A DNA stretch of 64,000 nucleotides from Dehalococcoidia bacterium (GCA_965238215.1 OZ250180.1:1884111-1948110), one strand, 5' to 3'. Shown: positions 1-12,038, numbered from the stretch's first letter. Notes: generated by a model from the sequence alone, not told the origin. Numbers and translations are program-made.

Positions 1-469
1 TGAAGGCGGGCTACGCATCGTGTCATCGGACACTTGTGAAATTGAATTACCCCTCGCCCCGTCACAGGAATTTGCCGATCTGCCAGAGAGAATGAGGCAA
101 AGGATGGAGAATGATCCCAACTTCGCTTACACCAGTATGAATTTGGATATAATGACCAGAAGGGAATCCAGGTACACAAGACTCGGTCCAGAATTCAGGC
201 GAATCTGGAATGGCTTTTATGCATATGAAGACAAGCTACGGAGGTATCCCTACTACTCACTTGTCTTTGTGGAGGAACTGTCAACCTGGGATGGTGTGCC
301 CACGGACAGAACAGTTGTCGAAATCCACCTCGAGCATATGGTGGACCTGCGCACAATTCCATCGGAATACTGGATTCCGAGCTGCATTGCGGGAGTCCCG
401 GTGCATATCGTCGTAGGCAACCACTTAATTTATTCTGATGCATCTCCTGATGAAGCAGGTATTCAGTAA
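1..469 (+). CDS. Cassette A lipoprotein-family protein (5' truncated by window edge), putative protease pro-domain homolog
   Basis: Frame is open from the window start (EGGLRIVSSDTCEIELP...). Clear paralog of 788-1321 and 1712-2248, sharing C..PS.E and the C-terminal IPSCIAGVPV. Confidence 0.8.
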   Translation, partial: EGGLRIVSSDTCEIELPLAPSQEFADLPERMRQRMENDPNFAYTSMNLDIMTRRESRYTRLGPEFRRIWNGFYAYEDKLRRYPYYSLVFVEELSTWDGVPTDRTVVEIHLEHMVDLRTIPSEYWIPSCIAGVPVHIVVGNHLIYSDASPDEAGIQ

Positions 470-519
470 CTGTTCAGGAACAAATATAGAGAATGAACGA
501 GAAATAAGGAGGAAAAACA

Positions 520-609
520 ATGGGACACAGACAAAGTAACCACAGACCCCTTCGCGCAGGGATAGCCATAAAACGCACCGGCGCTCCCCCAACCCGATCA
601 TCGCCCTGA
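520..609 (+). pseudogene. 29-aa 5' stub of a protease gene (MGHRQSNHRPLRAGIAIKRTGAPPTRSSP*)
   Basis: Strong RBS AAGGAGG before ATG 520. NHRPLRAGI matches the N-terminus of 2290-6030 (NHRPLRGGI) and of 1360-1542. Not in the ORF track. Confidence 0.8.
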
Positions 610-644
610 CTCCAAATCCCTCCCCTACCAACTCTTCCCCGCAG

Positions 645-865
645 ACCCCAATCTCCCATCTTCCTCGCCCACCCCCATCGGCCCAATGTGCCACAACAAC
701 ATTGACAAACACAAACACATATTCTACTATCCACCCATGAAGAGCACGAGAAGCTCACAAACCAGCCAACCAAAGGAGGTGACACCCATGAAAACACACA
801 ACTGGCAAACAAAGGCCCTCATCCTCTTCATAGCAGCAGTTGCTTTCTGCCTGACCACGGCTTGC
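645..865 (+). repeat. Cassette leader direct repeat, copy 1 (promoter, leader, RBS, signal peptide)
   Basis: Aligns with about 1580-1790 at an offset of about 924 bp; e.g. ATGAAGAGCACGAGAAGCTCA and GCCAACCAAAGGAGGTGACACCCATGAAAACA are identical. Confidence 0.85.
702..730 (+). promoter_or_regulatory. Sigma70-type promoter TTGACA-N17-TACTAT
   Basis: Near-consensus -35/-10 with 17-bp spacing upstream of 788. The copy at 1623 keeps TTGACA. Confidence 0.65.
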
Positions 866-1321
866 GAGCCGTGGCAGGTTGAAAGGATCATACCATCCGG
901 GTCTTGTGTGAATGACGCGGCTCTGACGCCATCGGCGGAATTCCTAGACCTATATGAGAGATGGAAGGATGAGCGAGGCTTAGATGAAAATACCTCGATG
1001 GAAGATTTGGCTAAGCTCCCAGGCTATTGGGACGCACGTAATGCAAGATTCGCCAGACTAGGGCCCAAATATGAGCAGATCGGTAACAAGATCAATGCCG
1101 AATACACAGAACGGATCATGCGCCACCCCTTCTACCGCGGACGCGTTCTCTGGTACTTGGAAGATGAAAGAGGCTGGCTAACAGATACGGTAGTTCTTGA
1201 AATTGATGTTCACAAGGTGGTGAGTCCGTACAGGTTTCCACCGGGAGACCGAATTCCGGAATGCATGGATGGTGTACCAGTGATCTATTTTCTGAACCGG
1301 ACATGGGCAACTCCTGGCTAA
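788..1321 (+). CDS. Cassette B lipoprotein, putative protease pro-domain homolog
   Basis: AAGGAGGT RBS; signal peptide MKTHNWQTKALILFIAAVAFCLTTA-C with a lipobox-like Cys; C-terminal IPECMDGVPV. Confidence 0.85.
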   Translation: MKTHNWQTKALILFIAAVAFCLTTACEPWQVERIIPSGSCVNDAALTPSAEFLDLYERWKDERGLDENTSMEDLAKLPGYWDARNARFARLGPKYEQIGNKINAEYTERIMRHPFYRGRVLWYLEDERGWLTDTVVLEIDVHKVVSPYRFPPGDRIPECMDGVPVIYFLNRTWATPG

Positions 1322-1359
1322 GTACAGAGCAAAAAATCTAGAATAAGGAGAAATAAGAA

Positions 1360-1542
1360 ATGGGACATCGCAGAACCAATCACAGACCCCTACGAGCCGG
1401 AATCGGTGTTACGCCGAATCTTGGAATACCAGGCTACGGCACGTTAACCGGCATTGCAAGACGAAATTCCGACGGCGTACTGGTTGCAGTAACCAACCTG
1501 CACATCATCATCGGCAACCCTATATTTACGCAATCTCTCTGA
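1360..1542 (+). pseudogene. 60-aa 5' stub of a protease gene, retaining the TNLH catalytic-His motif
   Basis: MGHRRTNHRPLRAGIG...GTLTGIARR...VAVTNLHI aligns with aa 1-50 of 2290-6030, then stops. Confidence 0.85.
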
Positions 1543-1579
1543 ATCTCGCTTCACCCCCACCAACGCTTCCTGCTTCTCC

Positions 1580-1790
1580 AACCCAATTTCCCAACCCCCC
1601 CGGCCCAAAGTGACACACCTGTTTGACAACAACGAACATACATACTATCCTCTATCCAATGAAGAGCACGAGAAGCTCAACAAAACCCGCCAACCAAAGG
1701 AGGTGACACCCATGAAAACAACCAACTGGCAAACAAAGGCCCTCACGCTCTTCATCGCAGCCGCTGCCCTCTGGCTGGCAACCGCCTGCA
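1580..1790 (+). repeat. Cassette leader direct repeat, copy 2
   Basis: Homologous to 645-865. Confidence 0.85.
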
Positions 1791-2248
1791 CGACGTACTA
1801 TCCCATCAACTATCCCGTTAACGGGATACGGGTAATATCTTCGGAACCATGCGAAATCGATGTACCCCTCGTGCCATCACAAGAATACGTCAAGCTCGCA
1901 GAGCAACTGAAGCAACTGGGAGATCAGGTTGATTACATGGAATCACGGGAGATAAAGATAAATGCGCGTGACGCGTGGTATGCAAGACTCAAGCCGGAAT
2001 TCAACCGCATCCTGGAAGTCGTTCGAACCTACGCGGACCTGCTCAGGAAGTACCCCAACTTCGAACTGACAATAGTAGAAGAGATGAGAACTTGGGATGG
2101 TGCGTGGACAGACAAGCTGGTTGTCGTAGTCTACGTTTCCCACTTGTTTGATCCCCGTACGATCCCTCCGGAAGAACGAATACCTAGTTGCATTGCCGGA
2201 GTCCCGGTGCATTTCATGGTCCAACCGACGGCAACCCCAGGCTACTAA
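1712..2248 (+). CDS. Cassette C lipoprotein, putative protease pro-domain homolog
   Basis: RBS; signal peptide ending LATA-C; LLRKYPNF...DGAWTD..VVVYV...IPPEERIPSCIAGVPV. Confidence 0.85.
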   Translation: MKTTNWQTKALTLFIAAAALWLATACTTYYPINYPVNGIRVISSEPCEIDVPLVPSQEYVKLAEQLKQLGDQVDYMESREIKINARDAWYARLKPEFNRILEVVRTYADLLRKYPNFELTIVEEMRTWDGAWTDKLVVVVYVSHLFDPRTIPPEERIPSCIAGVPVHFMVQPTATPGY

Positions 2249-2289
2249 CCAGATAAGCGTCCCAAAAATCAGAATTAAGGAGTTGAACA

Positions 2290-5200
2290 ATGGCTACAGA
2301 TAGAACCCAAAATCACAGACCGCTCAGAGGCGGCATCGCCGTATGGCCCAGCACCGGCCAAGGCGCACGCGGAACATTGACCGCCGTGGCAAGGCGTGTC
2401 GGTTTGGATACAAAGGTGCTTGTAACGAACATTCACGTCGTCAGCACAAGTGCTGACAATTACACATTGACTGAGGGAGAGCATCTATACCAAGGTGGCA
2501 CTGATTCCTCAGACCGGATAGGCAAAACCTTCACTTACACGGACGGCACAAATAGTTGGCTTCCAGTGGTGTCATCCAGTAAATATCAGGACGGAGAAGA
2601 GTACCGCAATGCGGGTGACATTACTCTGCTGGATGTCAAGGATGGCGTCGCTACTGACTTTGGCCTTCACGTGGATGATGGTTCTGGCGGGCATGAGCAG
2701 AGACCCATAGTGTTTCCACCTGTGAACCCTCTCCCAAACATGCGGGTGCAGGTTTTTGGTTCCGTCACCGGCCCGGGTGAAGCCCGCATCACCGTTGTAG
2801 ATGGCGACCAAGAGGCAAGGCGTATCGCAGTGAAGATTTCCGATACAGAGAAAATATACTACCGGTTTAAGAATACGGTCGTTCTAAATCGGGTGCCGCA
2901 TCCCGGGCAGAAAGGTGATTCAGGGGCGGCTTGCGTATGGGAAGATGATGATGGCAATTATCGGATGGTGTGCATTCTATATGGAGGCATTACAACTAAA
3001 AATCCAAGAACTGGAGAGCTTAGAAGCCTCACAGGATACGCCATGCCAGCCAGGTTAGCAGAATCACTCCTTGGGATATACTTCGGCGTAAAGGCTCCAA
3101 CTGTCAACCTCGGCTTGGACATAAAAGTGGTGCCAGGCGCTCCCATCTATATTCCACCTACTGTGACTGCCGTCGAGCCAGATGCCACAATCTCTTCATA
3201 CAGATGGGAAGTCGTTGCGCCTTGGCCTGTCATTCAGGCCGTCGCTCCCTTCCTTCCAGATCTTACTCAGAGGAACCTTTACTTTAATGCCCCCGACCAT
3301 GCTACCTACTTCGAGTTGAAACTCATCGTCACCGACAGCAACGGTGCCAAGGCCAGCAGCAAGATCCGTGTGCTAGTCAACAACCCCCCCACCGCCAAAC
3401 CCGGCATCAACCGGGTCGTCCCCGTCCACACGCCGCCAAGTCTCACCCCCGCGGTGACCCTCCTCGGCGCAGCCGAGGACCCCGACGCCGGCCACGTTGG
3501 AGACATGAGATACTCTTGGAGAGTAGACTCAGCCCCAGGCAGCAGCACCCGTTCAGCTACAACCGGCCCAACAATTACCTTGAGCGATGCCAACGTGGCG
3601 GAGCCTACCTTCACCCCCACCGCCATTGGCGACTACGTCTTCACCCTCACCGTCAAGGATCCCGGCGACCTCACCCACTCGGCCAGTGTCACCATCCACG
3701 CCTGTCCCGCCAACGAGACCTCCGATTGGTTCGACACCGGCGAAACCCGGTGTCACAACAACGCCCTGCAGAAGCGGCAGACCCGGCGACTAAGCAATGG
3801 CGTCATCGAGTTCCAGTGGATCGACGATCCGGACAACGAAGTCTGGGGAGCGTGGCAAGACACTTCAGCATCCCACCGCAACGAAGAGCCGGGAGACTGG
3901 ATAAACAGAGGAGGGCCATCCGGCTTCTATAACGTCTCCTTCCAATCGCAGCAGCGGACCGTAGCCTACGAGAAACAGCAGCGGCGCACCAGCGCGTGCG
4001 GCAACACGGAGGAGAGATGGATAGCCGCGAGCCGTAGGGAATCACGAACCAAGCTGGCGGGAAGAACCCTATTCCGGCCGCGCACACCGATAGACAGTCA
4101 GTGGGAAGTGCGGCGCATGAACAACCAGATCCAGGTGAAAGTGACCTCCCTGCCCCCCGTCTACGATGCCATCATAGAAATTCGTACGCGGCTGGAGAGT
4201 GGCAGCGGGTCGGATAGCGTCACCGTCATCAAGGCCATAGGGACAACCCTGAACAGCTGGGTGACGGTGCTTTCCAGCAGTGACGATAGGTGGAGCGAAG
4301 GGGAATGGACTGCGAAAATCCGGTTTGAGAACGACGAGAAGAACTCCAACTACTCAGCCACCAAGCCCGTCACCGCGCCGGCGGTGCCCACCACTCCGCC
4401 GCCCCCAGTGAGGTGGGTTGACACGAATCCTCTCCAAATCCGAGGTTGTGGGCCTACCAGGGAGAAGCAGCAGGTGAACGCCAACAACACCAGCGAGACC
4501 CGATGGGTAGCCGCCCCTGAAGACCTGGTTTGGGGTGAATTGGAGAACGATGGCGAGGCCACTGAAGTCACCACGGCCTGGGAAGACCAGGGCAGTCCCT
4601 CCCTGTTCGGTGGAGTGTGCAAGCAACTCCAGCGCCGCACTGCCACGACGACGCAGAACAAGCGCGAGAGGAACCAATGCGGCGGCTACAGGCCCGCTGA
4701 ACCCGTTGTCATCGAGAGGACCGACTACCAGCGTGTCACAATTGCTGAAACCTGGGGCAACTGGCGCGATACCGGAAACACGCGTGAGCACCCTGTTGAA
4801 CTCATCATAGAGAAGGAGCAGGAGCGCTTCTCGTCCCCCTGCAACCGCAGAGAAACCCGGTGGGTAGCTTGTGCGTGGGAAGACGTAAGCCCACCCGAAA
4901 CCCGCAACAGAGTCACAGGCAACTGGATGGATACGGGCAACCAGCGGGAGAACCAGGTGTTGCTCATCATTGAGAAGGAGCAGACCCGCACCGTAACGTG
5001 GGAGAAGAAGCAGCAATGTACCGGTGGCGGCACCGATCTCTACAGATGGGTACCGACATCCAGGACCGAAACCCGGTGGGTAGCTTGTGCGTGGGAAGAC
5101 GTAAGCCCACCCGAAACCCGCAATATAGTCGCAGGCAACTGGATGGACACGGGCAACCAGCGAGAGAACCAGGTTTTGCTCATCATGGAGAAAGAGCAAA

Positions 5201-6030
5201 CACGCACCATCACTTGGGAGAAGAAGCAGCAATGTACCGGTGGCGGCGCCACTCTCTACAGATGGGTACCGACATCCAGGACCGAAACCCGGTGGAGGAT
5301 AATACCGGAGGTCTGCGGCTCGTGGCGAGACGTGTCGGGAACGACCAGAGTCAAGACATACGGTACATACCGGAACGTGGTGCCTGCCGTATACACTGGC
5401 TCCGGAGCCAGTCGGAGGAGGAAGCAGACCCGTACCAACACACGCGAGAAACAGCAGAGCTGCACCACCAACGCTCCCTACAACAACACCCGGTATCGTT
5501 GGATTGCGACTACCTCCACCACAGAAACTCGGTGGGTTGCTGCCCCGGTTGTTACTCATAGCTACCGTGACATAACCCCGGCCGTCTATTCCGGCTGTGG
5601 CCCAAACAGGAGAAGAAAACAAGAGTGCATCCGTCTCGGGCACGAGGACACCAGGTGGCGTTCAGCCTCAGAACCGGATCCCTGGGGTCGGTGGTACAAC
5701 ACGGGACATACCCGCAATAGGGTTGTTGGAAGTTGGACGAATACCAGCACATACAGGGGTTGCGGCCCAAATCGCGAAAGAAAGCAAACGCGTACTACCA
5801 CTTGGGAAAATGAGCAAGAGCGGCAGAGTCATTGCGGCAACGTGGAAAGCAGATGGGTCTCAGATTCCAGCACGGACACCCAATGGGTTGCTGCCCCCGA
5901 AGCGGATCCCTGGGGACCGTGGACGGACACAGGTAACCAGCGCGAGAACCAGATACTGCTAATCATCGAGAAGCAGCAGAAGAGCACTTCCAGCTGCGGC
6001 AACGTCAAGTACAGATGGGTAGCCGTATAG
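2290..6030 (+). CDS. 1246-aa trypsin-clan serine protease with Ig/PKD-like domains and TSP1-like Trp/Arg/Cys repeats
   Basis: Putative triad His49 (TNIHV), Asp110 (GDITLL), Ser211 (GDSGA). Ig-like motifs (YSW...YVFTLTVKD). Repeated WGxWxDTG...R.Q.R...CG...RW. No signal peptide. Confidence 0.85.
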   Translation: MATDRTQNHRPLRGGIAVWPSTGQGARGTLTAVARRVGLDTKVLVTNIHVVSTSADNYTLTEGEHLYQGGTDSSDRIGKTFTYTDGTNSWLPVVSSSKYQDGEEYRNAGDITLLDVKDGVATDFGLHVDDGSGGHEQRPIVFPPVNPLPNMRVQVFGSVTGPGEARITVVDGDQEARRIAVKISDTEKIYYRFKNTVVLNRVPHPGQKGDSGAACVWEDDDGNYRMVCILYGGITTKNPRTGELRSLTGYAMPARLAESLLGIYFGVKAPTVNLGLDIKVVPGAPIYIPPTVTAVEPDATISSYRWEVVAPWPVIQAVAPFLPDLTQRNLYFNAPDHATYFELKLIVTDSNGAKASSKIRVLVNNPPTAKPGINRVVPVHTPPSLTPAVTLLGAAEDPDAGHVGDMRYSWRVDSAPGSSTRSATTGPTITLSDANVAEPTFTPTAIGDYVFTLTVKDPGDLTHSASVTIHACPANETSDWFDTGETRCHNNALQKRQTRRLSNGVIEFQWIDDPDNEVWGAWQDTSASHRNEEPGDWINRGGPSGFYNVSFQSQQRTVAYEKQQRRTSACGNTEERWIAASRRESRTKLAGRTLFRPRTPIDSQWEVRRMNNQIQVKVTSLPPVYDAIIEIRTRLESGSGSDSVTVIKAIGTTLNSWVTVLSSSDDRWSEGEWTAKIRFENDEKNSNYSATKPVTAPAVPTTPPPPVRWVDTNPLQIRGCGPTREKQQVNANNTSETRWVAAPEDLVWGELENDGEATEVTTAWEDQGSPSLFGGVCKQLQRRTATTTQNKRERNQCGGYRPAEPVVIERTDYQRVTIAETWGNWRDTGNTREHPVELIIEKEQERFSSPCNRRETRWVACAWEDVSPPETRNRVTGNWMDTGNQRENQVLLIIEKEQTRTVTWEKKQQCTGGGTDLYRWVPTSRTETRWVACAWEDVSPPETRNIVAGNWMDTGNQRENQVLLIMEKEQTRTITWEKKQQCTGGGATLYRWVPTSRTETRWRIIPEVCGSWRDVSGTTRVKTYGTYRNVVPAVYTGSGASRRRKQTRTNTREKQQSCTTNAPYNNTRYRWIATTSTTETRWVAAPVVTHSYRDITPAVYSGCGPNRRRKQECIRLGHEDTRWRSASEPDPWGRWYNTGHTRNRVVGSWTNTSTYRGCGPNRERKQTRTTTWENEQERQSHCGNVESRWVSDSSTDTQWVAAPEADPWGPWTDTGNQRENQILLIIEKQQKSTSSCGNVKYRWVAV
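4852..5295 (+). repeat. Intragenic 216-bp (72-aa) tandem duplication
   Basis: GAAACCCGGTGG recurs at 4852, 5068 and 5284; the two units are near-identical. Confidence 0.9.
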
Positions 6031-6064
6031 GCCTCAGGCACTCCGGTTGCACTAACCAGCAAAA

Positions 6065-6095
6065 GGGGGGCGGCTCCGCCAAGGAGCCGCCCCCC
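6065..6095. terminator. Intrinsic terminator hairpin between convergent genes
   Basis: GGGGGGCGGCTCC-GCCAA-GGAGCCGCCCCCC, a 13-bp perfect stem preceded by AAAA. Confidence 0.75.
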
Positions 6096-6128
6096 TCCTC
6101 CGCAATTCTTGATCCCTTAAGGAAACCC

Positions 6129-6770
6129 TCATCCCCCCGCCCTCCTCGCCGTCACCAGATACACCGGATCAGAAAACCCCTTCGGTGCCGGACTCCGGTC
6201 CTCCGCCCGAATCCCCTCATACCCTCCCGCCTTCTGCAGGTACATCTTCACCAACGTCATCCGCTGCTCGTCGCTGCACCCCTGCCATATCCGCACCGCC
6301 TTGGTGGGGAACATCCGGTTGGAGAAAGTTATCACCAGGGGGCATCCGGGCCTGAGTATCCGGCACATGTCCCTGAACACCTCCACCGGACGCGTCAGAT
6401 ATTGTACCGACACCGTCAGAATCACCCCTTCGAAGCGGGCGTCCTCAAACGGCAGTCGAGGCTCGCTGTTGACGTCATGGACAACGAAATCGTCCAGCTG
6501 GGGGTTCTCCCGCATCTCTACGGCATTCAACCCCAGCCCCACCATCCGAGCTTTGACGAAATCCGCGGGTAGGTGGGACCGCCAGCTGCTCATCAGGTCC
6601 AGGATGACGCCGTTGGCGGGCAGGAATTCCTGAAATATGCGCCCTATCTGTTCGATGGCCTCGTCGTCGATGTGCACGACAAGCCGTGGCTCCCGGTAGA
6701 AAAGGGCGTCGTTGCCCTCGTCCATCCGGTCGAAGAAGTTGTCCTGCAAACCCGGTTCCACAAGGCCCAT
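6129..6770 (-). CDS. Class I SAM-dependent methyltransferase (type 11)
   Basis: FYREPRLVVHID, ILDLMSSWRSHLP, GLGLN..EM..NP and FSNRMFPTKA motifs. Start chosen at ATG 6770. Confidence 0.85.
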   Translation of the reverse strand: MGLVEPGLQDNFFDRMDEGNDALFYREPRLVVHIDDEAIEQIGRIFQEFLPANGVILDLMSSWRSHLPADFVKARMVGLGLNAVEMRENPQLDDFVVHDVNSEPRLPFEDARFEGVILTVSVQYLTRPVEVFRDMCRILRPGCPLVITFSNRMFPTKAVRIWQGCSDEQRMTLVKMYLQKAGGYEGIRAEDRSPAPKGFSDPVYLVTARRAGG

Positions 6771-6887
6771 TCTACACGAAAAAACGCCTTGTTCTCGCCC
6801 GGCTTTCTTCTCTCGTTGACGATAAGCGCCCCCAATTGCTATAATGAGCCATCCCAAGGCAGCGTCCTAGCCTGACGCCTGCCTGCC

Positions 6888-7238
6888 TTGCGGGGGTGTT
6901 TCTTGGCCAACTACCTGCTTATTGAATCCCGCGACCCCTTTGAGTACGGCGACGCCCGCTATATGTACGACATGGCGGCAGACCTGGCTCGCAAGGGCAA
7001 CAGCGTTACCCTCTTCCTCGTCCAGAACGGCGTCCTAGTTACCCGTCCTGGCGTGAGGAACAACCCCCTCAACCGCCTCTTCCAGCAGAGCCAGACCGTC
7101 AGGGTTCTGGCGGACGAGTTCTCCCTGCGGGAGCGCGGCATTCCCCCTACCCCTCTGGTGGGTGGCGTTGAGGTGGCCGACGTGGACTTCCTGGTGGACC
7201 TGCTGGCAGAAGAAGATACTAAGGCCCTTTGGCATTAA
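6888..7238 (+). CDS. DsrE/F/H-family protein
   Basis: YLLIESRDPFE...VTLFLVQNGV...DEFSLRERGI. True start may be TTG 6903. Confidence 0.8.
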   Translation: MRGCFLANYLLIESRDPFEYGDARYMYDMAADLARKGNSVTLFLVQNGVLVTRPGVRNNPLNRLFQQSQTVRVLADEFSLRERGIPPTPLVGGVEVADVDFLVDLLAEEDTKALWH

Positions 7239-7320
7239 AGAGCCGTAGGATAGGACGAAATTGCCTTTGGTATCTTCCGACGTCATCATACTGAAAACCC
7301 TTTGGCACTGAGGAGCAGCT

Positions 7321-7710
7321 ATGGCAACCATTACAATCGCCCTTATGGACCCGCCTTACGAGGCTGAAACCACCACCACGGCCATGCGAATCATGGACGC
7401 CGCGGTGCGAAAGGGCCACCAGGTGAACGTGTTTGCCTACGAAGGCGCCGTCAACCTGACGATGAAAGACCAGGCCGCCCATCCCAATCCGGTTAAGGGC
7501 ACCACCGCTGAGGAGGAAGACCACCCCTCCAGTTCCCGGTTCATCGCCGGCCTGCTCGCCACCGAGCAGGTGGACTGGATCAACTGCGGCCTCTGCGTCG
7601 ACGAGCGCGGTTCCGGCAACTGGATAGACGGCGCCCGCCGCGGTGCGCCGGCGGACTTCTTCAAGTGGTCTCAGGAAAGCTCTAACACCCTGGTAATCGG
7701 CACCAAGTAG
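7321..7710 (+). CDS. DsrE-family protein with CxxC
   Basis: DPPY, VFAYEGAV and NCGLCVDERG motifs. Confidence 0.85.
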   Translation: MATITIALMDPPYEAETTTTAMRIMDAAVRKGHQVNVFAYEGAVNLTMKDQAAHPNPVKGTTAEEEDHPSSSRFIAGLLATEQVDWINCGLCVDERGSGNWIDGARRGAPADFFKWSQESSNTLVIGTK

Positions 7711-7719
7711 GAGGGTCGC

Positions 7720-8103
7720 ATGTCCAAAATCCTTTCCATCGTGGAACGGGCCTACCACGGCACCCTGGAGGAGCAGGACGATACCATCCTCTGGATGTCT
7801 CACATTCTCAAGAACGCCGGGGCGGATATCTCCGTCCTCCTCCGCTCTAACGCCGTGAACTACGCCGTTAGGGGCCAGGATGCCAGCGGCATAACCATCG
7901 GCGGCGTTCCACTTTCCAACCCCCCGAAGCTGGACGAGGACGTAGAGAGCCTCATTGGGGCGGGCGTGGATACATACGTGGTCAGGGAGGACGTGGAAGA
8001 CCGGGGCATCAGCGAGTCGGAGCTAGTTGATGGGATCAAGCTTGTTGACCGGGAAGGTCTGGCAGACCTCTTCGATGCCCACGACGCTATCTGGCACTGG
8101 TAA
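7720..8103 (+). CDS. DsrE/F-family protein
   Basis: VLLRSNAVNYAV...VREDVEDRGI...IWHW; operonic with 7321-7710. Confidence 0.8.
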   Translation: MSKILSIVERAYHGTLEEQDDTILWMSHILKNAGADISVLLRSNAVNYAVRGQDASGITIGGVPLSNPPKLDEDVESLIGAGVDTYVVREDVEDRGISESELVDGIKLVDREGLADLFDAHDAIWHW

Positions 8104-8124
8104 CCGCCCTCTAACTGCGCACAA

Positions 8125-8345
8125 CCCATCCCCTCTTGTCCTCGCGGATGCGGGGGACCCATCTTCTCCCCTTCCCTAGTCCTCGCTCATGGAGACCTTG
8201 GCATAACCGTCATTCCTCTGAAATTAGCCCGTTTCGCGCCTGGAAATCCCTTCCCCCTCGATGGGGGAAGGTTAGGATGGGGGTGAACCCCGTGCACGAC
8301 GACATTCCCCCCGGTAGAGGCAGTTCGAGAACCGCCTATTCCCCT
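8125..8345. repeat. REP-like palindrome mosaic
   Basis: Contains TGTCCTCGCGGATGCGGGG.ACCCATC, CTTCCCCC..ATGGGGGAAGGTT and GTAG.GGC.GTTCG.GAACCGCC modules that recur at 12.1-12.8, 13.6-14.0 and 19.4-20.0 kb. Confidence 0.75.
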
Positions 8346-8375
8346 CATCCCCGGGCCTTCTTCCCAAACGCTCCG

Positions 8376-9815
8376 TCACCCTATGGCGTGTATCCGACCA
8401 TCCTCTGTTCTGACGAACAGCTTTCCCTCCGCCAGCGACGGAGCCAGCATCACCGGAGAACCCAGGGATAGACTCCAAAGCTCCTGTCCAGTGTGCCGGT
8501 CAAGGGCGTAGACCAACCCCTCGGTGGTGGCGAAGTACACCGTGTCGCCGGCTACTATGGGCGATGATCGAACGCCGCCCTTCGCCTGAAAGGCCCATAT
8601 CTCCGTGGGCATTGTTGGTTCCATAGATCGGAATGTTCCTTCAGAGTCCCCCACGTAAAGGGTATCTTCCGTTATCGCTGGCGCAGAGGTTATAAATGCC
8701 TTGTCCGGCGGCGACCATCGCCAATTGGTCCCCTGTTGAGACGGCGGCCTCGGAATGGGCGCGCCCCACCTGAGCCACAGGGTCCCCCACAGCTTCTCCC
8801 GCTGCCATCGGCCGGGGATCTCCCGAATTCCTGCCTTGGCCGTGAGGATGTCGTTGGCGGAGGCCATGTACGCCAGTCCGTGGGACATCACCGTGGGCTC
8901 GAACGACGCGACGCCCCGGGTGCGGAACCGCATCCTTCCCTCTCCCGTGCGGTAGTTCACGGAATAGAGGCTGTTGTCCTGGGAAGAAAAGTAGAGAACC
9001 CCGTTGTACAGAGAAGGCGGCGAGGTTATCAGGTTCTCGGTGTGGAACTGCCACAGCATCTCTCCCGTTGCGGCGTCCAAGGCGTACATCGAATTGTCGC
9101 CGGATCCGATGAATAGGTACCCGTTAGCAACCATGGGGGAACTACTAATGTAGTTGTCCGTATTGAACGTCCACCTGGTATCGCCGGTGTCTTTGTCGAA
9201 GACCCAGACCTTGGTGTCCGTGGAACCCACGTACACGTTGTCCCCTGCCACGGCGGGAGATGAGTTCACCAGGCCAGGCATGTCGCGCAGCCATTTTGTT
9301 TGCCCCGTGTTTGCATCCAGGGCCATGAACTTGAAGCGGCTGCCAACGTATATGGTGCTGTCCACCACTGCAGGCAGCGATTGACCCTCGATTAACCCCG
9401 CCTCCGTCGACCAGAGGAGATTCCCTTGGGGAAGCGAAGGCGGGTTAGGCACGTAGCTGGTTCGCTCGTGATTCGACGCCGCCATGGACCATTGGCCTGG
9501 CTCGGAAAGGGACGAAAGGTTGGTGCTGGGTCTGGTCTGAAGCAGGGTAACCGGGTTGGGGATGACGTGGTAGTTGTGCCATACCACCGCCGCCACCGAT
9601 ATCACGACCAGCACTATGAGAAGCCACTTGTTCTGGGTCATGAAGATGAGGCCTTGCCGGCCGAAGAGGCCGCGACGGGGCATCCTTTGCGCCCACTCGG
9701 GTATGCCCTCGGCAATTAAACGACCACAACCCTCACACCGGGATCTTGTCTCCTGGTCCATCGCCCCGCAGTGAGGGCATGTGGTCTCCAGGTGACTGTT
9801 TTCTTCTTGGCTCAT
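8376..9815 (-). CDS. PQQ-like beta-propeller repeat protein with N-terminal zinc ribbon and TM helix
   Basis: CPHCG...CEGCG, a hydrophobic helix, then repeated SSP.V....YxGS.D...YALDA.TG..LW blades. Confidence 0.85.
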   Translation of the reverse strand: MSQEENSHLETTCPHCGAMDQETRSRCEGCGRLIAEGIPEWAQRMPRRGLFGRQGLIFMTQNKWLLIVLVVISVAAVVWHNYHVIPNPVTLLQTRPSTNLSSLSEPGQWSMAASNHERTSYVPNPPSLPQGNLLWSTEAGLIEGQSLPAVVDSTIYVGSRFKFMALDANTGQTKWLRDMPGLVNSSPAVAGDNVYVGSTDTKVWVFDKDTGDTRWTFNTDNYISSSPMVANGYLFIGSGDNSMYALDAATGEMLWQFHTENLITSPPSLYNGVLYFSSQDNSLYSVNYRTGEGRMRFRTRGVASFEPTVMSHGLAYMASANDILTAKAGIREIPGRWQREKLWGTLWLRWGAPIPRPPSQQGTNWRWSPPDKAFITSAPAITEDTLYVGDSEGTFRSMEPTMPTEIWAFQAKGGVRSSPIVAGDTVYFATTEGLVYALDRHTGQELWSLSLGSPVMLAPSLAEGKLFVRTEDGRIHAIG

Positions 9816-10166
9816 CCTTGGGTTCTCCTGACCATATTACGACTTCGCTGCGCGGCCGGTTTCCCAGAGGACGGCTCTACAGTACATTAACCCTTCCATT
9901 TTGTAGCAAGACCGCACATAACGCAACTTTTCAGCCCCGCTAACTCCTCCTGCCTTGCTGGTCTTCCTTATCACCCCCTGAAGCTATGCGAAGAATCTCG
10001 TTAGCTATGCGAAGAATCTCGTTGTCGTAGTGCCTCCTCAGTCTCTTCCTTCCTGGAGACAAGATTCAAACCTGCCAATCGGCCCGATGCAATCGATTTT
10101 GAAGAATCTCTATGCGTAAACGTGCCTCTGGAGGGCAGCAACTTGGCAGTGCGCTGCAATGCCGAC

Positions 10167-10577
10167 TTACCCGAACAGCCGAAAGCTCATGGCCATGAAT
10201 GCTCCCTGAAGCGCCACCCCGCTTATCAACGCGACGATGCGGCCCAATAGCGGAAGCGAACGTCCCACGTGCAGGCTCTTCCTTATGCCTACTGCCGAGA
10301 ACGCCGCAATAACAATTGTCAAGACCACTTCCGGAGGCGAGTAACTCCCGGCTGCGATATCCGACAGTCCAACGAGATAGAGTCAGATTGCTACCATGAC
10401 GACGATCCAGAATGCGAAAACCGGAAGGGCAAACCACCCTCCGGCAGGGGCCTGCCGCATCGCGAGACCTAGGGCAAGTAACGCAGGCGCCACCTGCGCC
10501 ACGTGGCGCGCCATTGTGTCGCTGACTATTCCGACCAGAAGTAGCGATAGGACAACCCCAAACAGGCAGGCTGCCAC
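10167..10577 (-). pseudogene. Small membrane protein interrupted by an in-frame TGA (10383-10385)
   Basis: Hydrophobic frame continues past TGA (VAI*LYLVGLSDIAAGSYSPPEVVLTIVIA...) to TAA at 10167. Context suggests Trp TGG>TGA. Confidence 0.6.
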
Positions 10578-10874
10578 AACCGTCCTGTCTCCGGAAAACG
10601 TCCCTTTATGCCTGATCGAATGACGGTTGCTACTTCTTGCAGAATTGGGGTCATCGCAGGTTGAATGATGGCGCGGCGGGCGGCAAGCCTCCTTTGATTC
10701 TGGCAGGAGCGGAGGGCTGTTCCCGTAATTTCGAGTCCCTCGAAGAATCTCGCTGGATTTACGCCAGCGTTACCCTTCTCCGTAAGAACGTCTCTCTTGG
10801 GCATCTGGCTTACTTCACCCTTGCCCCGCCCCAAGTGCTATCATTGGGCCAGTAATCTGACTAGGAGTTGATAA

Positions 10875-12038
10875 GTGGACGTCCAGCGGATTAGAGAGCA
10901 GATTCCGGCTTCCCAAAAGATGGTCTACCTGAACACGGGTTGGGATGGCCCTTCCCCCAAGTCCGTCGTACAGGCGGTGCAAGACCGCGTGGAGTACGAA
11001 AGCTACAACGGCCCTACCAGCCCCCCCGTATACCAGAGCGGTCGGGAGATCCAGCAAAAAGCCAGGGAAGGGGCGGCTGCCCTCCTCAACGTATCACCCC
11101 AGGAAATCGTCCTTACCCAGTGCACCACCGACGGCCTGAACCTTGTCGTGAATGGCCTCGACTGGAGGGAGGGAGACGAAGTCATCACCTTCGGCCTGGA
11201 GCACAGCTCCGTGCTAATCCCGGCCTACCTGCTGCCCAGCCGCTACGGCGTTCGTCTGAAGGTCCTCGACCTTAGTCCCACCGACACACATGAGGAGATT
11301 CTGAGCCGGGTTGCCGAGGCCATCTCTCCACGGACGCGTCTCCTGTTCTTCAGCCACATCCAGTACACCTGCGGCCTACGCATGCCCGCGGAGGGGTTGA
11401 GGAAGCTCACCAGGGACGCAGGGGTGCAGATGCTCATTGACGGAGCGCAGACGGCGGGCCACATTGCCCTTGACCTGCGGGCGTTGGACTGCGACTACTA
11501 TTCCATTCCTGGCCAGAAGTGGCTCTTGGGGCCCGATGGGACCGGGGCTCTGTACATCCGTCAGGACCTGATACCTTCCGTTGCCCCAACACGCGTATCG
11601 GGCCGTGCCGCCGCGTCCTACGACGAGCATGGGAGTTTCGATCCCAGCACGGACACCATAGACAAGTTCCTCTTGACCACCTCCAGCGCGCCCCTGGCGG
11701 CGGGGTTTGCCGAAGCCGTGGCATTCCATCAGGAGATGGGCTCGGAGGCCGTGGAGGCCCATACGCTGGCCTTAGCTGGCCAGTTGAAGAAGGCCCTGTC
11801 GGAAGTCCCCGGCGTTAAGGTCCTCTCCCCCATGGACGACGCCCGCTCCTGCGGCCTAACCTCCTTCCAGATAGAGGGCGTTGCACCGGATGAGGCAGTG
11901 AGTCGGCTGTGGAACGATTACGGCATAGTTGTACGTCAAGTGTCGGAGCTCACCTGCATCCGAGCGGCCACCCACGCCTTCAACAACGAAGAGGACTTGG
12001 AGAAGCTGGTAGCCGCAGTGGCGGAGTTGGCGCCCTAA
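10875..12038 (+). CDS. Aminotransferase class V, PLP-dependent (cysteine lyase/desulfurase-like)
   Basis: YLNTG, EHSS, DGAQTAG and GQKWLLGP.GTG (PLP Lys) motifs. Confidence 0.9.
   Translation: MDVQRIREQIPASQKMVYLNTGWDGPSPKSVVQAVQDRVEYESYNGPTSPPVYQSGREIQQKAREGAAALLNVSPQEIVLTQCTTDGLNLVVNGLDWREGDEVITFGLEHSSVLIPAYLLPSRYGVRLKVLDLSPTDTHEEILSRVAEAISPRTRLLFFSHIQYTCGLRMPAEGLRKLTRDAGVQMLIDGAQTAGHIALDLRALDCDYYSIPGQKWLLGPDGTGALYIRQDLIPSVAPTRVSGRAAASYDEHGSFDPSTDTIDKFLLTTSSAPLAAGFAEAVAFHQEMGSEAVEAHTLALAGQLKKALSEVPGVKVLSPMDDARSCGLTSFQIEGVAPDEAVSRLWNDYGIVVRQVSELTCIRAATHAFNNEEDLEKLVAAVAELAP

Follow-up and report, generated by a model that had tools for sequence, protein, structure and literature searches.

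The first 6,030 nucleotides (nt) of the stretch analyzed here, a window of 64,000 nt that spans positions 1,884,111-1,948,110 of a single-contig 3.06 Mb Dehalococcoidia genome, carry a tandem array of lipoprotein genes. Each of these genes is followed by the start of a protease gene, and the array ends in one intact gene for a giant protein of 1246 amino acids (aa). We propose that each unit of the array specifies a split protease resembling rice NARROW LEAF 1 (NAL1). The lipoprotein would be a tethering partner that occupies the catalytic cleft of its enzyme, and the arrays would be a by-product of loss or replacement of protease bodies and of recombination via conserved sequence blocks. This reading is put first, with a probability of about one half.

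Organization of the array

The array, designated locus 1, consists of four tandem units (0, A, B and C). Every unit contains a promoter-like site and a lipoprotein gene whose leader is near-identical between units, plus a conserved ribosome-binding site ahead of a protease start. The initial annotation had described three tandem units and had recommended a look for further ones upstream of the window. The tandem arrangement held up, although the number is four: unit 0, which encodes a 185-aa lipoprotein and a 44-aa protease stub, is located just outside the window on its upstream side. Beyond unit 0 lies an unrelated gene on the opposite strand, and the array is therefore counted as four units. 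A second locus of the same genome (locus 2, 1.274-1.295 Mb) holds seven lipoprotein genes with the same leader, four stubs, and giant genes of 1410 and 1537 aa.

Three of the protease starts at locus 1 are stubs of 44, 29 and 60 aa, and only the fourth is intact. Calls of open reading frames (ORFs) reproduced the positions given earlier for the genes of the window, including the 29-aa and 60-aa stubs and the 1246-aa protease. The same is true for the conserved ribosome-binding site (AGAA..TAAGGAG) and the gap of about 40-50 bp between lipoprotein and protease genes. The motif AGAA(T)xAAGGAG precedes the ATG of all three protease starts in the window, and the distances from lipoprotein stop to protease start are 50, 38 and 41 nt in units A, B and C, respectively. 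All three protease ORFs open with M..(R/T).NHRPLR.GI. The three stubs of locus 1 matched a profile built from 21 protease-domain sequences with expectation values (E) of 4.4e-8, 2.2e-4 and 1.1e-14. Direct-repeat families D5, D8, D10 and D11 connect the units of locus 1, and the repetition of units exceeds chance. The following features were assigned (window coordinates):

2..469, plus strand: 3' part of the gene for lipoprotein A, an orphan partner gene; it begins 110 nt before the window and encodes 192 aa in full (lipoprotein profile, E 5.6e-78)
520..609, plus strand: stub A, 29 aa; about 17 protease codons followed by residues encoded by a C-rich spacer (profile positions 1-20, E 2.2e-4)
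610..701, plus strand: C-rich spacer from stub A to the unit B promoter
702..730, plus strand: promoter-like site of unit B (TTGACA-17-TACTAT), followed by a conserved leader RNA of about 55 nt and AAGGAGGTGA
788..1321, plus strand: lipoprotein B, 177 aa, an orphan here; leader MKTHNWQTKAL..LTTAC, NAL1_N-like C-terminal domain, intact protease partner in genome G008
1360..1542, plus strand: stub B, 60 aa; residues 1-48 identical to an intact 966-aa gene of G008
1623..1651, plus strand: promoter-like site of unit C
1712..2248, plus strand: lipoprotein C, 178 aa, cognate partner of the intact protease (structure model described below)
2290..6030, plus strand: intact protease ORF, 1246 aa
2290..3108, plus strand: NAL1-like serine-protease domain, aa 1-273; catalytic candidates H49, D110 and S211, no signal peptide
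3451..3696, plus strand: PKD-like Ig domain, aa 388-469 (PF22352, E 2.4e-13)
3700..6030, plus strand: Trp/Cys-rich C-terminal region with repeated W.DTG..RE...EK.Q.R...CG...RWV modules
6065..6095, strand not assigned: GC-rich hairpin downstream of the giant gene; conserved behind each of the genome's three giant genes, absent after stubs

For the lipoprotein genes of units B and C, the most likely start codons are ATG 788 and ATG 1712, which directly follow AAGGAGGTGA. Longer ORFs starting at 686 and 1610 were considered and are probably wrong; an upstream ATG in the 5' untranslated region (UTR) is out of frame in unit A.

Contigs of a sequencing run from another study covered positions 1-791 with 0 differences and positions 792-1710 with 10 differences and 2 gaps. 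Since both stubs of the window are bridged by these independent contigs and the architecture recurs in 8 other genomes, the array is not an assembly artefact and the stubs are real, as had been assumed.

The giant protein

The N-terminal domain of about 270 aa is common to the three giant paralogues of this genome and contains conserved TN.HV, D and GDSG motifs. A profile of this domain identified 333 proteins among 1.84 billion representatives. In nearly all of them the domain begins at residue 2-5; hence there is no signal peptide. H49, D110 and S211 do not vary among 53 family members and follow the chymotrypsin order His-Asp-Ser. In a search of the PDB with the 21-sequence profile, the nine best matches were all rice NAL1 (E 1.1e-4 to 3.6e-4), and the alignment spanned profile positions 25-210 including the His, Asp and GDSG motifs. 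The next matches were S1 proteases with E >= 0.02. A PDB search with the single protease sequence returned chance matches only. Among the coding parts of the unit, conservation is highest in the first 45 or so protease codons, which contradicts the earlier view of the N-terminal enzyme as the variable part.

In the 1246-aa protein the PKD-like domain at aa 388-469 was the only one recognized by Pfam. Among the 53 family members, PKD-like domains were found in 42 and Trypsin_2 in 4. The C-terminal region of about 770 residues contains 40 Trp and 18 Cys arranged in W.DTG...CG...RWV modules. These repeats match no family, and the ESM Atlas gave no usable match. The length of the giant genes varies between 384 and 1610 aa across sister genomes, which suggests that the repeats are rapidly gained and lost. 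A 216-nt tandem duplication with 93% identity is located at 4852-5283 in the Trp/Cys-rich region. Within the protease domain, H9, H127 and H135 (2314-2316, 2668-2670 and 2692-2694) are near-invariant, being present in at least 90% of the 53 family members, and could form a putative metal site or an N-terminal docking site.

The lipoprotein as the second half of a split protease

Eleven genes of this genome share the leader MKTHNWQTKALTLFIAA..L(A/T)TAC, which conforms to the lipobox pattern on visual inspection. The enzymes for lipoprotein processing, Lgt (169.7 bits) and LspA (118.6 bits), are encoded in the genome. Export of the protease by Tat "hitch-hiking" was considered and rejected, since the leader lacks a twin-arginine motif. 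One 236-aa relative (genome 1281521-1282231) has kept the common leader and lost the lipobox Cys. A word-indexed collection contained 26 close relatives of the window lipoproteins. The window lipoproteins themselves reached no family at threshold in Pfam and NCBIfam. Two 300-aa paralogues from locus 2, in contrast, passed the cut-off of 27 bits for Pfam NAL1_N (PF25608) with 31.1 and 33.9 bits, and comparison of the window type with this NAL1_N-passing type by hhalign gave a probability of 98.4% (E 5.7e-15, 74 columns). Lipoprotein C was modeled with a mean predicted local distance difference test (pLDDT) value of 86.9 and a predicted template modeling (pTM) score of 0.79. In NAL1, aa 89-172 are described as an ATP-binding domain that packs against a protease domain (PMC12012508).

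The link between the two halves comes from fused relatives. Ten of the 150 best family representatives have an N-terminal extension ahead of the protease domain, and all 10 show a WRQPNV-type N-domain before the protease start; one of them also carries a lipoprotein-like signal. Genome G010 contains a 919-aa ORF in which the N-domain is fused to the protease. In the window, lipoprotein C and the protease are separate genes in different frames. As the NAL1_N-type domain is fused to the protease in relatives, the unit is therefore regarded as a split NAL1-like protease. Fusion of lipoprotein and protease by frameshifting or read-through was dismissed, since the spacing between the two genes in other genomes does not keep a constant remainder modulo 3.

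The initial annotation had supposed that retained lipoproteins could neutralize or activate protease variants from competing strains. A neutralizing contact was predicted: the complex of lipoprotein C with the protease domain scored 0.75, while the best of three controls scored 0.00. Of 80 solved complexes, 58 attained this mark, against 2 of 110 mismatched pairs; the counts are rough since our own alignments were used. The runs shared at least 73% of contacts, with a partner pLDDT of at least 82. In the predicted interface, residues 145-152 at the extreme C-terminus of the lipoprotein touch protease residues 49, 179-181, 208-211 and 230-234, and a long helix and a hairpin of the lipoprotein lie against residues 96-103, 110 and 172-190. 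The C-terminal tail is thus predicted to reside in the catalytic cleft in a pro-region-like geometry.

According to the model that we prefer, the lipoprotein would bind its protease domain on the outer face of the membrane, with helix and hairpin on the catalytic domain and the last 8 or so residues in the active-site cleft. Given this predicted position of the tail, we infer that the lipoprotein may act like a detached pro-region, which would tether the enzyme and keep it latent or aid its folding until release. Repeated loss or replacement of the protease body would yield the arrays, and the promoter/leader blocks together with the first 45 or so protease codons would permit copying and shuffling of units by homologous recombination. 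Orphan lipoproteins that were retained probably still act on the protease or proteases remaining in the same genome.

Several results weigh against this model. Lipoprotein C itself matched Pfam NAL1_N below threshold (E 0.2), and the N-domain profile reached NAL1 residues 119-157 in the PDB with E 1.3-1.8; PDB searches with the lipoprotein profiles yielded nothing significant. With the model of lipoprotein C, Foldseek retrieved NAL1 chains without significance (E 0.04-0.1, 22-23% identity over 73-76 columns), and the best VIA match (Z 4.3) was not significant either. The AlphaFold model of the protease domain, based on a 3-sequence alignment, had a pLDDT of 34 and was unusable. The score of the complex is predicted, and it concerns the two halves of one split gene; because the structure of NAL1 has been solved, the pass may partly reflect likeness to NAL1. 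No common cleavage motif was found ahead of the HRP start in the 10 fused relatives that were read, so pro-region-like processing is without sequence support. There is also a mismatch of compartments: the protease frame is closed two codons before its ATG and lacks a leader, whereas the lipoprotein has a Sec-type leader, and no export route was found for the leaderless protease. Finally, the identity of stub-linker spacers was 0.67 within genomes versus 0.58 between genomes (17 of 28 stub linkers), which indicates only modest homogenization.

Arrays in other genomes and cognate pairing

The protease profile matched in 8 of the 12 other genomes of the genus, in 2 of 41 genomes from the other families of the order and in 0 of 7 from the other genera of the family. 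In a phylum-wide sample, 1 of 400 genomes matched at E <= 1e-10. The array pattern was found at locus 2 as well, in seven further genomes of the genus and in one of another family. Profile mapping covered 19 loci in 10 genomes with 50 protease starts. Among the 22 intact starts, 16 have a separate partner gene at a distance of at most 400 nt and 1 is fused to its partner; 4 of the remaining 5 are preceded by a gene with the family leader and an unrecognized body. The other 28 starts are truncated, with a partner gene beside 27 of them and the last one at a contig end. Truncated starts with retained partners thus pile up upstream of intact genes across species, as proposed initially for the window.

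Lipoprotein and protease types go together, which bears out the earlier expectation of cognate pairs. All seven lipoproteins ending in EAGIQ precede starts of the MGHRQSNHRPLRAGIA type, although NQSP has replaced NHRP in unit 0 of the present genome. A Mantel comparison of lipoprotein distances with protease-body distances gave r = 0.71, a value that is inflated by the kinship of the genomes and that was reached by 0 of 2000 permutations. These comparisons support the view that the units are cognate lipoprotein/protease pairs, the types of which travel together. Stub B differs from the 966-aa gene of G008 over 48 codons by 8 synonymous and 0 non-synonymous changes. Several other stub types also have intact counterparts in other genomes, and the stubs are thus remnants of cognate pairs still found whole in sister species.

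In genome G011, contig positions 1500-2063 carry a gene orthologous to that of lipoprotein A (98% identity over 124 aa) together with its stub. This unit adjoins the methyltransferase gene that in the window is the neighbor of the giant gene. It follows that either G011 lacks units B and C and the protease, or the short-read contig collapsed.

State of the orphan lipoprotein genes

Open reading frames were found for 25 of the 27 partner genes beside stubs; the exception is the one genome without an intact protease, G007. The ratio of non-synonymous to synonymous substitution rates (dN/dS) was 0.38 for the orphan lipoprotein B, 0.36-0.50 for the partnered lipoprotein C and 0.17-0.22 for the protease domain. 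Contigs from two ribonucleic acid (RNA) libraries of one study covered positions 1-566, 737-1449 and 1710-1791 with few differences, which shows their presence in the libraries and is not proof of transcription. Positions 1837-5100 were without coverage in these contigs, which is not evidence of silence. In genome G007 (95% complete) only truncated protease starts were present, and both partner genes were frameshifted. This decay fits a partner that depends on a protease of the same cell, although it concerns a single genome.

These results bear on the interpretation given in the initial annotation, a mirror-image polymorphic effector/immunity system. Under this explanation the leaderless giant proteases would be weapons, the lipoproteins type-specific surface inhibitors, and the orphans guards against protease variants of competitors. 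The genus harbors at least seven distinct pair types in a mix that differs from genome to genome, and the distribution of the family is patchy, both of which speak for such a system. The open frames and the dN/dS ratio of the orphans, the faster evolution of lipoproteins than of the protease domain, the predicted contact that would block the active site, and the library contigs over orphans A and B point in the same direction. However, no domain for secretion, delivery or toxin trafficking came up when the giant proteins and 53 relatives were scanned with Pfam, and PADLOC and PHROGs gave no match. In addition, the partner shares homology with a domain that is integral to the enzyme, and in relatives it is fused to the enzyme. 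The parallel decay of lipoprotein genes in G007, a single genome with no intact protease, runs counter to the specific claim that orphans are kept against foreign proteases. Cognate pairs, upstream orphans and, as a prediction, the neutralizing contact remain from the original proposal; a known delivery or secretion domain was not found, and the partner corresponds to the enzyme's own NAL1_N-type domain. We consider an effector/immunity function rather unlikely. A bolder version is unlikely: the leaderless proteases would represent a new class of polymorphic weapons released against kin or competitors, each with a matching surface lipoprotein, derived from the N-domain, that would plug the active site. 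The upstream orphans and their 5' stubs would form an "immunity archive", a mirror image of the orphan arrays of Rhs/CdiA, built by recombination via the promoter/leader block and the first 45 protease codons.

Alternatively, the arrays may be neutral debris of a decaying, fast-evolving tandem family, with stubs and orphans as non-functional leftovers. The stub of unit 0 lacks the near-invariant His and Arg (NQSP for NHRP), the start codon is lost in some stubs, decay is complete in G007, and the stub in G011 abuts the neighboring methyltransferase gene. Non-functional leftovers, however, do not fit the high proportion of open partner genes beside stubs; those of the present genome keep promoter-like sites and ribosome-binding sites. 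The dN/dS ratio of orphan B is not above that of partnered copies, and the changes in stub B are exclusively synonymous. Furthermore, the stub ends are not scattered: 17 of the 28 fall at profile positions 39-49, and the others at 20-25 (5 cases), 53-58 (4) and 85-95 (2). The cluster of ends lies just ahead of the catalytic His, and identical junction peptides are found repeatedly in a single genome (..SDLP in G008, ..DGPSQRP in G010). Neutral decay is an improbable explanation.

Promoter/leader blocks, spacers and hairpins

A block of about 180 nt comprising promoter, 5' UTR and leader is common to all eleven copies in an alignment across both loci. Sites of the TTGACA-17-TACTAT type are located about 60 nt before the lipoprotein ATGs at 788 and 1712. 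Leader protein identity amounts to 77-92%, whereas the mature lipoprotein bodies share 33-59%, in agreement with the conserved leaders and diverged bodies described before; across the eleven copies the identity of the bodies is 23-59%. Synonymous divergence is likewise lower in the leaders (0.33-0.80) than in the bodies (0.74-2.8).

Near-identical promoter, UTR and leader sequences in eleven genes with divergent bodies, together with the low synonymous divergence of the leaders, resemble variable surface lipoproteins that undergo antigenic or phase variation by recombinational switching; the protease would then be incidental. Yet a promoter-like site and a ribosome-binding site are present at each of the copies, and therefore none is a silent cassette. 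Invertible segments or slippery tracts were not noticed, although no dedicated search was made, and there is a tight link between the type of a lipoprotein and that of the protease start behind it. Surface variation is thus very unlikely. Neutral decay and surface variation both fit less of the evidence than the split-protease reading does.

The hairpin at 6065-6095, GGGGGGCGGCTCC-GCCAA-GGAGCCGCCCCCC, separates the giant gene from a methyltransferase-like gene in convergent orientation. Closely similar copies are found after the other two giant genes and ahead of the first unit of locus 2. Since the hairpin follows each giant gene and no stub, the array order is (lipoprotein-stub)n-lipoprotein-protease-hairpin. 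An Rfam scan of positions 1-6300 identified no family.

C-rich spacers follow every stub (window 610-701 and 1543-1622; genome 1883780-1883930) and would encode Pro/Ser/Thr-rich sequence if read in the stub frame. They belong to two sequence types that are common to both loci, with identities up to 98.8%, and are absent ahead of the first unit of an array. The idea that these spacers are 3' flanks of lost genes was ruled out by the absence of the giant-gene hairpin after stubs. Ahead of the most divergent giant paralogue (1537 aa), membrane-anchored proteins of 202 and 174 aa are encoded in place of a lipoprotein with the common leader (genome 1292249-1293311).

Comparison with known systems

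NAL1 (PDB 8HAU, 8PME and others; PMC12012508) is the best PDB relative of the protease domain, and both have a trypsin fold with His-Asp-Ser and, here by profile links, an NAL1_N-type domain ahead of the protease. NAL1 is described as an ATP-dependent trimer/hexamer cage (PMC12012508). In contrast to NAL1, the N-domain here is an exported lipoprotein with its own gene, PKD/Ig domains and about 770 aa of Trp/Cys-rich repeats come after the protease, and the genes occur in arrays with truncated copies. No description of bacterial NAL1-like systems was found in the literature.

The proposed geometry recalls the pro-regions of bacterial chymotrypsin-fold proteases, in which the C-terminal tail of an N-terminal partner enters the active site, as predicted here. 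Pro-regions of alpha-lytic protease and streptogrisins are foldases as well as tight inhibitors and are active in trans. Unlike these, the partner in our arrays has its own gene, is lipid-anchored and is not cleaved off. Pro-regions encoded by a separate gene were not found in the literature. Pfam scans listed no pro-region family at E <= 1, and the likeness of the lipoprotein model to the prodomain-like structure 4hlb was weak (VIA, Z 3.4, rank 24).

In polymorphic toxin loci such as Rhs and CdiA/CdiI, orphan modules and displaced toxin fragments are found beside the active toxin. The arrays share with them a strain-variable mix of truncated enzyme fragments and intact partners beside a full-length gene. 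The polarity, however, is reversed, with 5' fragments located upstream, and the partner is homologous to a part of the enzyme. Moreover, Pfam scans revealed no Rhs, CdiA, LXG or similar delivery domain, as the giant proteins and 53 relatives contained only domains of the PKD/Ig/fn3 type and weak trypsin matches.

Staphopain and staphostatin form a protease-inhibitor gene pair, and NisI is a lipoprotein immunity protein. As in our arrays, a small specific partner is encoded beside a protease or toxin gene, in some cases lipid-anchored at the surface. Their folds and families are unrelated to those of the present pair, and to our knowledge they occur as single pairs without stub arrays. Borrelia Erp/UHB and Mycoplasma Vlp are paralogous lipoproteins with shared upstream and leader sequences. 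Near-identical promoters and signal peptides ahead of divergent mature parts are a common feature, but in the present arrays a protease start accompanies each copy, and a switching mechanism was not seen.

The comparison ties the plant yield gene NAL1 to a bacterial family in which the two domains may be fused, split, or split with a lipid anchor. These forms constitute a natural experiment on the effect of the N-domain on the protease. The arrays themselves represent a recurrent architecture in which the partner is kept and the enzyme truncated; this resembles orphan immunity genes, but the polarity is reversed and the partner is a part of the enzyme. If the predicted position of the tail in the cleft is true, the lipoproteins would be specific inhibitors or tethers of serine proteases and would constitute a new family from an uncultured lineage.

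Base composition and downstream genes

The G+C content is 48-53% in the lipoprotein array and protease domain (window 1-3000) and 56-63% in the remaining region (3000-12000). Downstream of the array, three small ORFs at 6888-8103 appear by eye to be candidates for sulfur-relay proteins of the DsrE/F type and are apparently unrelated to it.

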